Positions 32,873-54,320 of a DNA stretch of 64,000 nt are shown here, piece after piece. Each line of letters begins with the position of its first letter. Position 1 is the stretch's first letter. The notes under the pieces were generated by a model. It was not told where the DNA came from and did no database searches. It saw only the letters and a list, made by a program, of their open reading frames with translations. The stretch spans positions 57,102,001-57,166,000 of the forward strand of contig OZ024740.1 of the NCBI GenBank assembly GCA_964016885.1. Direction: 5' to 3'. The stretch is from Eledone cirrhosa. Lineage: Eukaryota. The position numbers and the translations under genes are program-made.

Positions 32873-34170
32873 AGCAAATGTTTAGTTCTATTATTGCTTG
32901 TTTTTTTCTTCCATTCTTATTTTGTGTTTATAGTTCGTCTGTCTTATAAAATACTCTAACTTATGTCTGCCACAAAAAGGACAATTTAGCTAATAAGGTG
33001 TTCGTGGTGTAATACATTAACAATGCTATTTCAATTAATTATCTATACTTAATTCCAGTAACTTCAATCAAGACGACAAGAAATGTTTAACAATGGCTGA
33101 CAAACAACTTAGTATTCCGGCTGAATGCATAAAAGTATTAATGTCAGACAATTCACACCAAGAACCTTTGATAAAAGGATAAAAGAACCGCATGTCTTCA
33201 ATAAATATGCCTGGTTTTAAAATATAAATATATGATGACTCATATATTTGAACTTTTGATGATGCTATGATCTCGTGTATTATTTTGAAATAGGGGGAAT
33301 TTTAACAGTAGGAAATAAAAGTATAAACATATAGTCAATAGCTGTAATGTCAGAATTTGAATAGAAACGACAAAGAAAAGAAATAAGATCAGGAAAGGAT
33401 AGACAATGACAACAGCATGTTCTGGAATTCAACCGGAAACATTATCTTTATTCAACAGAAAGGTACAGAAAAATATTCTGTATTGTAATTCAAGAATAAC
33501 TTGACAAATCAGATCTATAAAACTATATATGAACAGGTTTACTAAATATATATGTATTTGCATTTATGTTCTTTTGTGACATGATAAATTCTGATTTTTC
33601 TAAAATGGCTGAGTTTTCAGTGTAACAAATTCCCGCTTTCTTTCTTTTCATACTGTCATCTATATTTCTATTTCTTCTCTCTCTCATTTTATCTTCCCAA
33701 AGAGGGCTAACGTCCGAGACATAAAGGCTCTTTTACTATTTCAAACATTAAACTAACATTTATGACGATTACATTGTATTGTTCTCAAGAGTTGTTTTTC
33801 CTTGTCGATTTTACTCATATATGTATATAGATATGTCTAATAACTATATCTGTCTGTATATTTAAACATATGGCTTTTGAATGTAACGTTTCTCTCTTCT
33901 TTCTCTGTCTTTCTCAATCTATTTCACTAAATAGCGAACTAGAGAAAAACTACACCAGTCTCAAGACTATTTCCTTAGCAAAGCGGTCATATAAAAAAGA
34001 TACATACAGATAGACAAACATCATATATATATATATATAATAAATGTAATCTGAGTTTTTTTAATATTAATAATAACATTCAATTCGTTTGCAATTATGC
34101 AAACAAGCCTCAATTTTATGGCCATGTCAGTAGAATGAACCCTTCATTCTTGCTCTTGTGCTGGCATGTG

Positions 34171-34218
34171 AACTGCAGACACTAATGTTTCTGGGTATCA
34201 CCCTTCATCAGTACAGCT
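34171..34218 (-). ncRNA. Type I hammerhead ribozyme (420-nt family)
   Basis: AGCTGTA-CTGATGA-aGGGT(GAT)ACCCa-GAAA-CA(TTAG)TG-TC-TGCAGTT; GUC triplet. Confidence 0.78.
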
Positions 34219-34284
34219 CACTGTTCACCTGCCAAACTGTCAGAGCTAGTGAAAATATATGCTATTTTCAAAAATACACAGTGA

Positions 34285-34515
34285 CTGATCGGCCTGATTT
34301 GCATATTAGCAGACTGGCGGATCAGTCGGATCTGCATATTAGCAGACTGGCTGATCAGTCAGATCTGCATATTAGCAGACTGGCTGATCAGTCAGATCTG
34401 CATATTAGGAGACTGGCTGATCAGTCGGATCTGCATATTAGCAGACTGGCTGATCAGTCATATCTGCATATTAGCAGATCCACTGATCAGCCAGATTTGC
34501 ATATCAGCAGACTGG
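34285..34515. repeat. 33-bp tandem repeat (~7 units) within the 420-nt element
   Basis: Unit GATCTGCATATTAGCAGACTGGCTGATCAGTCA. It explains the DLHISRLADQS repeat in ORF 34158..34685. The opposite arm has only ~3 units. Confidence 0.9.
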
Positions 34516-34556
34516 CCAGTCAGTTTCCTGTATACGAATTGAATGTTATTATTAAT

Positions 34557-34728
34557 AGGATTGGCAGTATTGGTAGAGATGCTTTGAAGCATAGAGTTAC
34601 GTCCCTTTATGATCTGAGTTCAAATCCCGCCGAGGTTAACTTTGCTTTTCATCCTTACGGGGTCGATAAAATAAAGTACCAGTAATGTACTGGGTAATTG
34701 CTGGCCTTGTGCCTAAAATAGAAACAAT
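34557..34728 (+). mobile_element. SINE (family S) inserted in the tail of the 420-nt element
   Basis: Flanked by duplicated TTATTAATA. Empty sites are present at ~34062-34075(-) and ~35148-35160. Confidence 0.8.
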
Positions 34729-34997
34729 TATTAATATTCGAAAAACTCAGATTACATTTATTGTATTCAGTGATGTAGAGCGAAAAATTTCTTTTTTATT
34801 TGAATTTGGCAAAGCCGGCCATTTATCGCTTGTATACAGGAAACTGACTGGCCAGTCTACTGATATGCAAATCTGGCTGATCAGTGGATAATATGTAGAT
34901 GTGACTGATCAGCCAGTCTGCTAATATGCAAATCAGGCCGATCAGTCACTGTGTATTTTTGAAAATAGCATATATTTTCACTAGCAGGTGAACAATG

Positions 34998-35045
34998 AGC
35001 TGTACTGATGAAGGATGATACCCAGAAACATTAGTGTCTGCAGTT
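34998..35045 (+). ncRNA. Type I hammerhead ribozyme (420-nt family)
   Basis: Same core and stems as 34171-34218, with one substitution in stem II. Confidence 0.72.
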
Positions 35046-35249
35046 CTGTTCACATGCCAACACAAGAGCAAGAAAGAAGGGTTCATTCTACTGACATGGC
35101 TATAAAATTGAGGCTTGTTTGCGTAATTGCAAACGAATTGAATGTTATTATTAATATTCGAAAAACTCAGATTACATTTATTGTAGAGCGAAAAATTTCT
35201 TTTATATATATATATATATATATATATATATATATATATATATATATAA

Positions 35250-51064: not shown

Positions 51065-52618
51065 TATATATATATATATATATATATATATATATATATA
51101 TATATATATATATATATATATATACACACATATATATATATATAAATATATATATATATATATATATATATATATATATATATATATATATATATATATA
51201 TGAGTATTTTATATTTGAAAATTTTTGCACTAAGTCATACTTATACAACTTAACCTACGTATGTTTATACACACATCGTTTACACACACATCTATATATT
51301 TGTGTGTGTGTATGTATGTGTGTGTTTATATGTGTGTTTGTGTTTATATTTATATATATGTACGTATGTACGCGTATATATACACGTATGTATGTATGCA
51401 TCTATGTATGTAAGTATGCATGCATGTATGTATGTATGCATGTATGTATGCATGTATGTATGCATATATGTATGTATGTATGCATGCATGTATGCATGTA
51501 TGTATGTATGTATGTGTGCATGTATGTATGTATGCATGTATGTATGCATGTATGTATGTATGTATGTATGCATGCATGTATGTATGTATGTATGCATGCA
51601 TGTATGTATGCATGTATGTATGTGTGCATATATGTATGCAAGCATGTTTGTATAAGACGCAATAGGTATAGTGTGTGAATACATACATATGTGTGTTGCG
51701 TTTGCGTCTGTGCATACGTGCATGTGTGCGTATGTGTGGGTGTGCATACTAGTGCATGTTTGTACGCAAATGAAGGCTACTGTCAACAGTATTGCTGGTG
51801 TCAAATCACAAGTGATACAATCATTTGTGAGGCTTGCCTTGTCATCGCATTCGTTCATACCACAGTTCTTTTATTCTTTTATTCTTTTATTGCAGTAGTC
51901 CTTCTCCGATCTATATATGTAGCATTAGTAGAATAATAGCTTGCATATATCTAATCATTAAACGAACATCATTACATCTGCACAACTACAACTATCACTA
52001 TACCGTATCACCCATAATTGTTGCAAGCTTCACTGTTGCCAATAACAACTGCTGCTCTTTGCAGCCTAACATCTGCCGCTTTCTAACATCTTGGTTCCAG
52101 CATTGCGGTCTCACGATATCCATTCTCTCCAAGTTAAAGAGGCACTGCCATTTTCCCTCACATTTCCTTGTCACAGGTGTTTCCATGATGATATATAAGC
52201 ACTATCCTGAGGCTATAAATCTAGTTTCACTAGTCACAATGCCAAAATTATCTATGAGAGTTATGAGAAATTAGTGTGTATATATATATATATATATATA
52301 TATATATATATATATATATATATATATATATATATGTATGTAAAAGTAATATACTTTTATTTATATATAGTACATTATATATGTATATATATATATATAT
52401 ATATATATATATATATACTATATATGTATATATATATGTAAAAGTAATATACTTTTATTTCTATATAGTACGTTATATATATATATATATATATATATAT
52501 ATATATATATATATATATGTGTGTGTGTGTGTGTGTGTGTGTGTAAAAGTAATATACTTTTATTTATATATAGTATATTATATATATATATATATATATA
52601 TATATATATATATATGTA

Positions 52619-52888
52619 TATCCGGGAGCTTCCAACAGTAATGGTTGCATTCTTTAAGGGTATGTCAATATTTATTTATAAAACTGCTCTATATTATATT
52701 TTATCTGATGAAAGCACACCATAATTTAACTTGGTGTCCTTGAAATATGTATAATGAAATAAATATGGTTTTATAAATATAGTTTCTATTTGTCAATATC
52801 GTATTTTTACTCCAATTATTTGTTGAGTGCTTTATATCAGTTATAAAAATATTTGCTTGTTGTATCGCAACAATTTAAATAGAACTTT
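52619..52888 (+). repeat. Solo pLTR of PLE3 including the tail
   Basis: Reverse complement of ~47904-48176; lies between TA runs. Confidence 0.85.
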
Positions 52889-52914
52889 TTCATATATATA
52901 TATATATATATATA

Positions 52915-53470
52915 TATATAAAACTGAGGATGTATGTCTGTGTGTGTGTGAGTTCGAATCCCTAAACCTCGAGAACCACCCAACCGACTGTTTTGAAACT
53001 TTACACATGTAATACTTATGTTTCAGGGACTCTTCTGAGCAAAGAAAATTTCAAATTTTCTACGCCCCAGGGACCACATTAGGCGATTTAGCGATCTCGC
53101 TCTATAATTCTTAGTCTTTCTCTTTTTAGATAGATACATACTTATAACGTCGCGCCCTTATAATATCTGGTGTATGTCTGCCTGCCTGCATTACGTCACT
53201 TCCTTGACGATGTGTGTGTGTGTGTGTGTGTGTGTGTGTGTGTGTGTGTGTGTGTGTGTGTGTGTGTGTGTGAGTTTGAATTCCTAAAACGCGAGAAGTA
53301 CCCAACCGATTTTTTTCAAACTTTACATGTGTATTACTTATGTTTCAACTTTTTTTATCTCCTAGGGCCCGCATTAGGCGAAAAACTGCGTTGTTTAACA
53401 TTTTTAGGGGTTTTTTGAGGCGTTACGTCAGACCGATTTCCTTGAAATTGGAACTATGTATTAGTCAGTC
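52915..53470 (+). mobile_element. Probable Helitron 5' fragment
   Basis: Starts TATATAAAACTGAGGATGTATGTCTGTGTG, has a duplicated CCAACCGA..AAACTTTACA block, and shares TTTTTAGATAGATACATA..TATAACG.CGCGCCCTTATAATAT with ~15983-16027. Confidence 0.5.
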
Positions 53471-53805
53471 TCTTCTAAGTAGAACCATAAAGAATTAGCT
53501 TTTAAAGAATTTCCCTTTTCTTTAAATCCATCAACCATGACTGACCCCCAACGATCTTATAGACACCTGCAATATAGGCATTGTTAGCTTAAGAGAAACT
53601 TATAAATAAGGAGTGGCACCCCATTCTGAACTTGTTTACAGAATTCTTTCTGCCTTTCTTACTCTAAATATAAATTATAGCTTTAAAGAATTAGCTTTTT
53701 ATGAATTCCCTTTTCTATCAACCAATGACCTCTACCCATCCCACTCCCTACCCTCTCCTACCACCTGAAGAGACCTATAAATACCATATTTATTTTTTGA
53801 TACCC

Positions 53806-53856
53806 AGATTCCTGATGATTTCTAAAGAATGAAACAGTTCTAGTCCTGTAGAATCT
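53806..53856 (+). ncRNA. Type I hammerhead ribozyme
   Basis: AGATTC-CTGATGA-tTTCT(AA)AGAAt-GAAA-CAG(TTCTAGTC)CTG-TA-GAATCT; GUA triplet. Stem II is weak. Confidence 0.65.
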
Positions 53857-53948
53857 CATCTATATTAAATCTTTTATACTCTGCTGTGTATTGAGTACCT
53901 TATTAACTGTGGTTACCTCCGATTCAACCCGGAATAACGTATATATAT

Positions 53949-54320
53949 CGTCGTCCCCCACCAACACCCCACTCTCCAGAGCATGAAATTAATAAACATT
54001 CGTTGTACTGCCTCTCTGTTTTGTCCCTGTTCAAATTTTTCCATTATATATAATACACGCTCACACGGCTTCCATTCCTTGGAACATAACTTAACTACCG
54101 GCTCAACCCCGATCTAATCCGCCGTGACCTTTCTCCGAACTTTACACACCTTCCCACACTTGGTCTTTCCTAACTCTGTTCCCACACACTTCTCACCTGA
54201 GGAAGGGTTTATGCCCGAAACGTCGTCCCCCACCAACGCCCCACTCTCCAGAGCGTGAAATTAATAAACATTCGTTGTACTGCCTCTCTGTTTTGTCCCT
54301 GTTCAAATTTTTCTATTATA
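53949..54320 (+). mobile_element. Retrozyme-like miniature of the PLE1 family, 272-nt monomer in partial tandem
   Basis: CGTCGTCCCCCACC..TGTTCAAATTTTT at 53949 and 54221. The body matches 10391-10608. HHR core CTGAGGA-aGGGT(TTAT)GCCC-GAAA-CGTC at 54197-54224. TA runs lie on both sides. Confidence 0.82.

Follow-up and report, generated by a model that had tools for sequence, protein, structure and literature searches.

Short hammerhead ribozyme repeats with the insertion footprint of Penelope-like elements in a locus of Eledone cirrhosa

We analyzed a 64 000-nt stretch of the Eledone cirrhosa genome (assembly GCA_964016885.1, contig OZ024740.1, positions 57102001–57166000; hereafter the window) in which four short units, A to D, bear a type I hammerhead ribozyme motif. 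We consider it likely that B, C and D are high-copy, non-coding hammerhead repeats that lie in (TA)n, have two fixed 3′ ends and are probably copied by Penelope-like elements (PLEs), D likely by a PLE of the Hydra clade, and that A represents a single deletion copy derived from a Neptune-type PLE. This reading is built on the copy numbers, two discrete ends, inverted arms with opposite ends, the seamless crossing of the predicted cut, the unique junction of A and a pile-up of 5′ ends in the A family.

Non-LTR retrozymes have been described in coral, mussel and axolotl, with PLEs suggested as their helpers (PMC7229834), and vertebrate retrozymes have been linked to pseudo-long terminal repeats (pLTRs; bioRxiv 10.64898/2026.07.22.740005). 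A first-pass annotation of the window, from which the labels are taken (A, 272 nt; B, 281 nt; C, 420 nt; D, 519 nt), had described four unrelated retrozyme-like elements alongside their probable PLE helpers. Positions such as +100 count nucleotides from the predicted hammerhead cut, and genome-wide searches covered the 3.0-Gb assembly.

Hammerhead units in the window

Self-BLAST confirmed the four annotated direct redundancies at 82–97% identity: 53949–54052/54221–54324 in A (97%), 40126–40201/40407–40481 in B (92%), 34727–34799/35147–35207 in C (82%) and 39541–39603/40060–40122 in D (94%). The annotated type I hammerheads were recovered as well, with one core per unit in our own motif scan, which was complemented by folds (A at 54197 and C at 35005 on the plus strand, B at 40203 and D at 39796 on the minus strand). 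An Rfam scan of the window returned no hammerhead among 86 matches at E ≤ 1, which consisted of microsatellite-driven miRNA matches only, so that the motif assignment rests on our scan and folds. None of the copies in the window contains a same-strand pair of complete hammerheads. The sequences belonging to B, C and D are as follows.

34035–34535, minus strand: inverted arm of C, outer end at the proximal start site (+143/148) in (TA)n.
34537–35202, plus strand: main arm of C, ~1.2 monomers, ending at the distal site (+181) in (TA)n.
~34559–34730, plus strand: tRNA-type short interspersed nuclear element (SINE) within C, at +109, with a short ATTAATA duplication.
39541–40122, minus strand: D, comprising 1.12 of its 519-nt monomers, with a 3′ terminus in (TA)n at +189, the proximal site.
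40126–40484, minus strand: B, 1.24 monomers, with a private ~60-nt deletion; 3′ end lost at the join with D.
40482–40513, plus strand: short inverted arm of B (+55 to +84).
41593–41921, plus strand: second C fragment, hammerhead at 41618, with an independent SINE insertion, again at +109.

C forms one head-to-head insertion, 34035–34535 on the minus strand plus 34537–35202 on the plus strand, whose two ends, +181 and +143/148, are opposite sites and fit the family pattern described below. The inverted arm has its core at 34211, a predicted cut at 34178 and seven 33-bp internal repeats; in the main arm the core lies at 35005 and the predicted cut after 35038. The start of C that had been annotated at 34731 was not borne out: it appears there because the plus arm is interrupted by the SINE, which we take to be of tRNA type. 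The dominant tRNA-SINE seems to be similar to those of octopus.

Position +109 of C is a SINE hot spot inside the retrozyme. Insertions recur there in one orientation with varying 5′ truncations and duplications of ~4–16 nt, namely in 12 of 60 C loci (L061=L151, L064, L077, L081, L086, L152, L156, L164, L169, L171 and L179), in the inverted arms of L071 and L080 and twice in the window (34559–34730 and 41769–41890); two C loci hold two SINEs each. The flanks of 19 SINE ends in 37 random stretches were varied and ATT-rich.

D has its core at 39796 and a predicted cut at 39730; B has its core at 40203, a predicted cut at 40172 and a second core that is broken at 40484. Both lie on the minus strand and are joined directly at 40122–40126, where the 3′ end of B is missing without contact to (TA)n. 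Of the four units annotated in or next to (TA)n, A, C and D end in it. Either D inserted into B or a single cDNA switched from D to B. Concerning unit sizes, ~519 nt stands for D; the B family has a monomer of ~340 nt (340–343), from which the window copy with its 281 nt is short by ~60 nt, and C measures ~430–439 nt in other copies.

Copies, ends and arms in the genome

First-look candidates numbered 2030 for B, 3568 for C and 3524 for D, with 40 scored per family. We examined 60 loci each for B and C and 58 for D, having passed over two D loci located at the start of a contig; once overlaps had been removed, 51, 54 and 47 insertions, respectively, remained for analysis. Matches in a random sample of 37 10-kb stretches (two to the A family, one to B, two to three to C, none to D) were too sparse, so no copy numbers were taken from them. 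B, C and D carry no open reading frame (ORF). Their copies are dispersed and mostly 0.5–1.9 monomers long, with fixed 3′ ends in (TA)n and ragged 5′ ends; more than one monomer is present in 32 of 51 B, 33 of 54 C and 31 of 47 D copies, half of the sample having been selected for length.

Main arms end at two sites per family, ~+135 and +178 in B, +143 and +181 in C, and +187 and +274 in D. The proximal site, the distal site and other positions account for 28, 17 and 6 of the 51 B ends, 29, 18 and 7 of the 54 C ends, and 26, 20 and 1 of the 47 D ends. At least three TA units are found at the end of 110 of the 152 insertions (B 24/51, C 43/54, D 43/47), and 88 of the 152 have an inverted arm (B 26, C 30, D 32). 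Where both ends could be classed, the arms end at opposite sites in 63 of 66 cases (B 17/18, C 23/24, D 23/24; pooled P = 7 × 10⁻¹⁶); L062/L063 and L127/L146 look like duplicated loci, and counting each once gives 22/23 for C and for D. Insertions of endonuclease-containing (EN+) PLEs consist of a pLTR and an inverted, 5′-truncated copy with an optional tail at one end and show a (TA)n bias (PMC8557442, PMC3846280), a layout that Frangieh et al. traced to two internal start sites (PMC11167929). Opposite arm ends in (TA)n correspond to this optional tail with two internal start sites (PMC8557442, PMC11167929). The insertions support the view that B, C and D are dispersed, short, high-copy, non-coding type I hammerhead families whose ends carry a PLE footprint.

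Local unequal crossover from PLE ends, which would make the units satellite-like repeats and has been suggested for vertebrate retrozymes (bioRxiv 10.64898/2026.07.22.740005), is very improbable for these families. Copies below two monomers are scattered over the genome, with 3′ ends that are fixed in (TA)n, 5′ ends that are ragged, and inverted arms, and this insertion footprint goes a long way to refute it. We inspected 90 B, C and D loci that were found with the hammerhead and 3′ part only (short-query loci). Their upstream sequence consisted of additional monomer, of an inverted arm or of unrelated flanking DNA, and long upstream sequence was not shared between any two of them. The first-pass annotation had set against its own proposal the possibility that the monomers are pLTR ends of coding PLEs; this is what we found for A, a pLTR end plus 5′ untranslated region (UTR) with a unique junction, but not for B, C or D in these 90 loci.

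The predicted cut is crossed seamlessly: indels within 4 nt of it occur in 1 of 75 B, 0 of 79 C and 0 of 54 D crossings (1/208). Circular folds are more stable than those of shuffled sequences for B, C and D (z = −4.3, −10.6 and −4.5), and A gives z = +0.6. The hammerhead is part of the minimum-energy fold in D and not in B or C.

B and C, annotated as unrelated, align over 130 nt located 5′ of their cores (P = 0.003). Whole-monomer local alignment of the two reaches only P ~ 0.03, comparable to other pairs. From the pre-hammerhead block and a common octamer we conclude that B and C probably have a common origin. The octamer, ATGCAAAT, is located ~90–120 nt 5′ of the core, at +210 in B and at +246 and +312 in C, and is amplified in C as a 33-bp repeat (window 34285–34516). 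It is possible that it serves as an internal promoter. An snRNA-type promoter reading, after newt satellite 2, was considered, and the literature search gave nothing usable for it.

A Hydra-clade PLE as likely helper of D

The window contains three coding PLE families. The features that bear on a helper are listed here.

47900–50860, minus strand: remnant of a Hydra-clade PLE that retains the reverse transcriptase (RT) thumb and the endonuclease; its hammerhead lies at 48089 and it ends 3′ at the distal site.
50860–51063, plus strand: inverted arm belonging to this Hydra insertion; its end is the proximal site, +51, and its hammerhead lies at 50964.
52620–52892, plus strand: Hydra-clade pLTR stub ending at +139, hammerhead at 52705.
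39950–39979, minus strand: motif at the distal start site of D, which lines up in register with its counterpart in the Hydra-clade PLE.
36857–39284, plus strand: a second coding PLE family, decayed, with a CX4CxxC linker and, near 39012, a hammerhead-like core.

Longer relatives of the PLE at 47900–51063 (L245–L250) have a CxCX5C linker, DKT, a C-terminal endonuclease and a hammerhead, and the assignment to the Hydra clade is made by such motifs. The clade is very abundant in this genome, with 73 915 first-look candidates. Its copies end at ~+51 and ~+139, with arms at opposite sites in nine of ten two-arm stubs, and a motif of ~30 nt is repeated after both start sites. The best match of this motif in D falls on the distal site (top of 519 positions), with a score reached in none of 100 shuffles, and the tails of the Hydra-clade PLE and D are of nearly equal length (~88 and ~87 nt). 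The motif in register and the tail length make the Hydra-clade PLE at 47900–51063 the likely helper of D.

The annotated idea of helpers alongside holds best for D, and the Neptune-type PLE of the window has a different footprint. No pLTR matching B or C was present among the Hydra and other PLE 3′ ends mined from ~290 loci. In one locus, L157, a C copy lies 3′ of a Neptune-like ORF end and is separated from it by an unrelated 3′ UTR; this isolated case was set aside. The PLE at 36857–39284 was rejected as helper of B: the local alignment gave P = 0.01, but the start-site motif was out of register. No supported sequence link connects this PLE to B, C or D. A second copy of its family is present at 54460–56017 on the minus strand (87–96% identical, same 3′ end), and further divergent Hydra-type and other PLE families with their own hammerheads were seen at L251 (G000:C3:170516500–170523000), L265 and L280.

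Unit A and the Neptune-type PLE

53949–54324, plus strand: unit A, −4 to +219 joined to −53 to +100 of a Neptune-type PLE.
9920–15193, plus strand: near full-length PLE of the parent family of A, 569-bp pLTRs (99.5% identical), cores at 10367 and 15072.

A has its core at 54197 and a predicted cut after 54224, and is ~90% identical to the pLTR end plus 5′ UTR of the PLE at 9920–15193. This PLE has a frameshifted RT and GIY-YIG ORF with a CX4CxxC linker (Neptune/Nematis type); a CX2-5CxxC linker before GIY-YIG is common to Neptune and Nematis. Allowing up to one mismatch, the junction of A occurs a single time in 3 Gb, and 22 A-related minis have 22 different junctions. The unique junction and the identity to a PLE pLTR identify A as a one-off deletion derivative of a Neptune-type PLE and not a retrozyme family. 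Of four annotated retrozyme-like elements, B, C and D keep that description, being short, non-coding, high-copy, of type I and not coding-PLE ends in the sampled loci.

Of 30 A loci found with the last 99 nt only, 12 extend more than 1.1 kb into a long PLE; the others comprise 15 stubs and 3 minis. Every one of them ends at +100 and none has an inverted arm; with one 3′ end and no inverted arms, the Neptune-type footprint is unlike that of B, C and D. In L013, L020, L029, L030 and L244, the insertion's own junction is present in two or three copies, and L013 shows this without a hammerhead core. The first-pass annotation had taken terminal redundancy as the expected product of circular or multimeric RNA. 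This was too strong, since minis such as L013 repeat private junctions without a ribozyme, and redundancy alone is no proof of RNA circles. In L008 and L011, the join and the 5′ start both lie exactly at the predicted cut. The A-type minis would be explained most simply by an enzyme that runs to the 5′ end of a short linear RNA and then switches to the 3′ end of this RNA; alternatively, ligated fragment circles may stall the enzyme at the joint. A transcription start at −53 was also considered for the Neptune family, five to six minis being joined at −53 after T, yet none of 27 non-mini short-query loci starts there; this absence, and a query that favored the junction, led us to drop it.

A step in 5′ ends at the predicted cut

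Among the matches listed, A-family 5′ ends abutting (TA)n fall on 153 distinct starts at +1 to +19 versus five at −1 to −11 (P ~ 10⁻²⁴), with four at −12. This tally was made by hand on 200 of 500 rows, from which 24 composite-junction rows and 14 duplicate rows were dropped. Per nucleotide, there are ~5 rows at −42 to −12 (168 rows), ~1 at −11 to −1, ~22 at +1 to +19 (extrapolated) and at most 19 at +20 to +50 (594 rows, including other subfamilies). The profile is a step rather than a smooth length decay, ~4-fold relative to the far upstream background, a size that is approximate as the anchors vary in subfamily coverage and CpG content. The pile-up is likely to be a record of hammerhead cleavage in vivo.

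In D, 5′ ends favor the cut side at 28 versus 8 of 36 places (P = 0.004). For C, ~27 listed places lie before the cut and roughly 140 after it, and we excluded these as evidence because a microhomology peak dominates them. Besides, a GT-rich flank is joined to +14 of the Neptune pLTR by an identical junction in ~24 of 100 listed rows at many loci; this recurrent junction is a PLE stub that was captured and then amplified within another repeat.

Mechanism and alternatives

A PLE endonuclease would break both strands in (TA)n. On each DNA end, a reverse transcriptase would then initiate at one of two internal sites of the RNA and copy backwards, and the two cDNAs would be joined head to head. 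B, C and D likely have mixed templates: linear RNA cut by the hammerhead on the one hand, closed circles or incompletely cut multimers on the other. In the A type, the template is probably a short linear fragment of PLE RNA, on which the enzyme runs to the 5′ end, in some cases the one made by the hammerhead, before jumping to the 3′ end; such a jump would yield 1.x to 3 monomers and could seed new retrozymes.

Several observations weigh against this scheme or parts of it. The loci sampled for B, C and D are top-scoring matches rather than random ones. None of the sampled copies reaches 2.0 monomers (maxima 1.87 for B, 1.72 for C and 1.52 for D), and two intact cores are rare under a strict pattern in 60 loci each (one B locus, L032; three C loci, L068, L070 and L079; no D locus). 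RNA-editing scars gave no clear A-to-G excess (A>G/T>C per 1000: 17/23 in B, 10/10 in C, 15/11 in D). The proximal site of D does not match the Hydra motif (ranks 214 and 421 of 519), and start-motif and local alignments to the PLEs of the window found no helper motif for B or C. In the C hammerhead, two A residues face each other at the base of stem II. In A, the minimum-energy fold is not the active one; stem I has just 2 bp, so that cleavage would probably depend on an additional RNA or a protein partner, which is what has been reported for an Anolis element (PMC11167929). Finally, the cut-side bias of D is not predicted by a pure covalent-circle model.

That all four units are covalent circular-RNA retrozymes copied by rolling-circle reverse transcription is, in our view, unlikely. 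The seamless cut site and the stable circular folds of B, C and D would fit it, as would the repeated junctions of some A-type minis and the abundant circles made from 350–390 nt mussel retrozymes (PMC7229834). However, A is unique and PLE-derived, L013 repeats its junction without a core, the joins and stops of L008 and L011 exactly at the cut are those expected of linear RNA, and no B, C or D copy attains two monomers. This last point fits another account, in which B, C and D arose as mini-PLEs amplified from linear read-through transcripts that had stayed uncut, without circles and with hammerheads as passengers. The A-type minis show a route of origin for such elements; moreover, hammerhead mutants of the Anolis PLE had no effect on in vitro insertion, and no RNA-seq reads end at the cut (PMC11167929). 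Nevertheless, we hold this account to be improbable too, as the cut-side 5′ ends, strong in A and moderate in D, argue against it, and 5′ loss would be expected in each round, yet many copies exceed one monomer.

More tentatively, and with some doubt on our part, the genome may record a whole retrozyme life cycle: PLE hammerheads would cut in vivo, end-to-end jumps of the RT on short cut fragments would make tandem minis, and a few of these would become amplifying families. Each family would depend on the PLE clade that has the start motif found in it (Hydra for D), and two enzymes would prime at separate sites of the same RNA.

Other features of the window

At 41965–43435 (plus strand), a Hydra-related ORF remnant is followed by a hammerhead at 43337 and (TA)n, the end of another coding PLE family. 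Three more type I hammerhead families adjoin (TA)n at 9534, 47580 and 53812 (all plus strand) and have relatives in other loci. At 35249–36850 on the minus strand lies the 5′ portion of a PLE ORF; like Adineta Penelope (PMC3846280), it has long inserts rich in Asn. It is inverted relative to the part at 36857 that encodes RT and endonuclease, and is joined to the 3′ half of a hammerhead from another element. A near-perfect 211-bp palindrome (97%) occupies 39295–39505 between the PLE end and D, and other palindromes are found at 44250–44530, 24190–24312, 18488–18608 and 20202–20358. Further features are a 6.3-kb minisatellite with 176 copies of a 36-bp unit (56722–63067) and an RT followed by several C2H2 zinc fingers (2109–3839, minus strand), the remnant of a different non-LTR retrotransposon.

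Comparison with known systems

The retrozyme class itself is already known from other molluscs and animals, and B, C and D are new members. Like metazoan non-LTR retrozymes (PMC7229834, bioRxiv 10.64898/2026.07.22.740005), they are short, low in GC and non-coding, bear a type I hammerhead and have thousands of copies, a well-paired predicted circle and PLEs alongside. Known retrozymes, in contrast, range from dimers to long multimers, whereas B, C and D mostly comprise 0.5–1.9 monomers, and the 519 nt of D exceed the range of 170–400 nt given for invertebrate retrozymes. Neither two-site ends nor a motif matching the helper are described in the consulted sections of PMC7229834 and bioRxiv 10.64898/2026.07.22.740005.

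With EN+ PLE insertions, B, C and D share two internal start sites, a one-ended tail, head-to-head arms and (TA)n targets; the EN+ PLE tail measures 30–40 nt, and that of D and the Hydra family ~87 nt. The family at 47900–51063 resembles the Hydra clade of PMC8557442 in its CxCX5C linker, DKT, canonical hammerhead and insertion into (TA)n. The core of A is like the minimal PLE hammerheads of PMC4209133 in that loop III is missing, ACGU forms a palindrome and stem II is preceded by an extra A, but those have a stem I of 4–5 bp and A one of 2 bp. According to PMC4209133 there is no in vivo evidence of cleavage by PLE hammerheads; the 5′-end step in the A family points to in vivo cleavage of such a minimal hammerhead. 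As an ORF-less deletion derivative that keeps its parent's ends, A resembles the short internally deleted elements (SIDEs) of R2 (PMC6765202) and non-autonomous Chlamys such as MRC1 (PMC8557442). These are amplified families, whereas A-type minis are mostly singletons with private junctions.

In the first-pass annotation, the system was one not known to have been characterised in cephalopods. Its type is known from elsewhere, and our literature search, mostly open-access in scope, found no paper on cephalopod retrozymes or on a 5′-end step at PLE hammerheads, although the supplementary species tables of PMC7229834, PMC4209133 and PMC8557442 may list octopus elements; the main text of PMC7229834 mentions neither 'octopus' nor 'cephalopod'.

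In the available literature, mobilisation of animal retrozymes by PLEs is proposed, not shown, and the role of PLE hammerheads is called unclear. The A-type minis add the caution that terminal redundancy is not proof of a circle. The locus offers a named helper–parasite pair, the Hydra-clade PLE and D, with predicted start nucleotides, a genomic sign of germline cutting by a minimal PLE hammerhead and a route from a PLE to retrozyme-like tandems, all of which could be tested by the published in vitro PLE assay.

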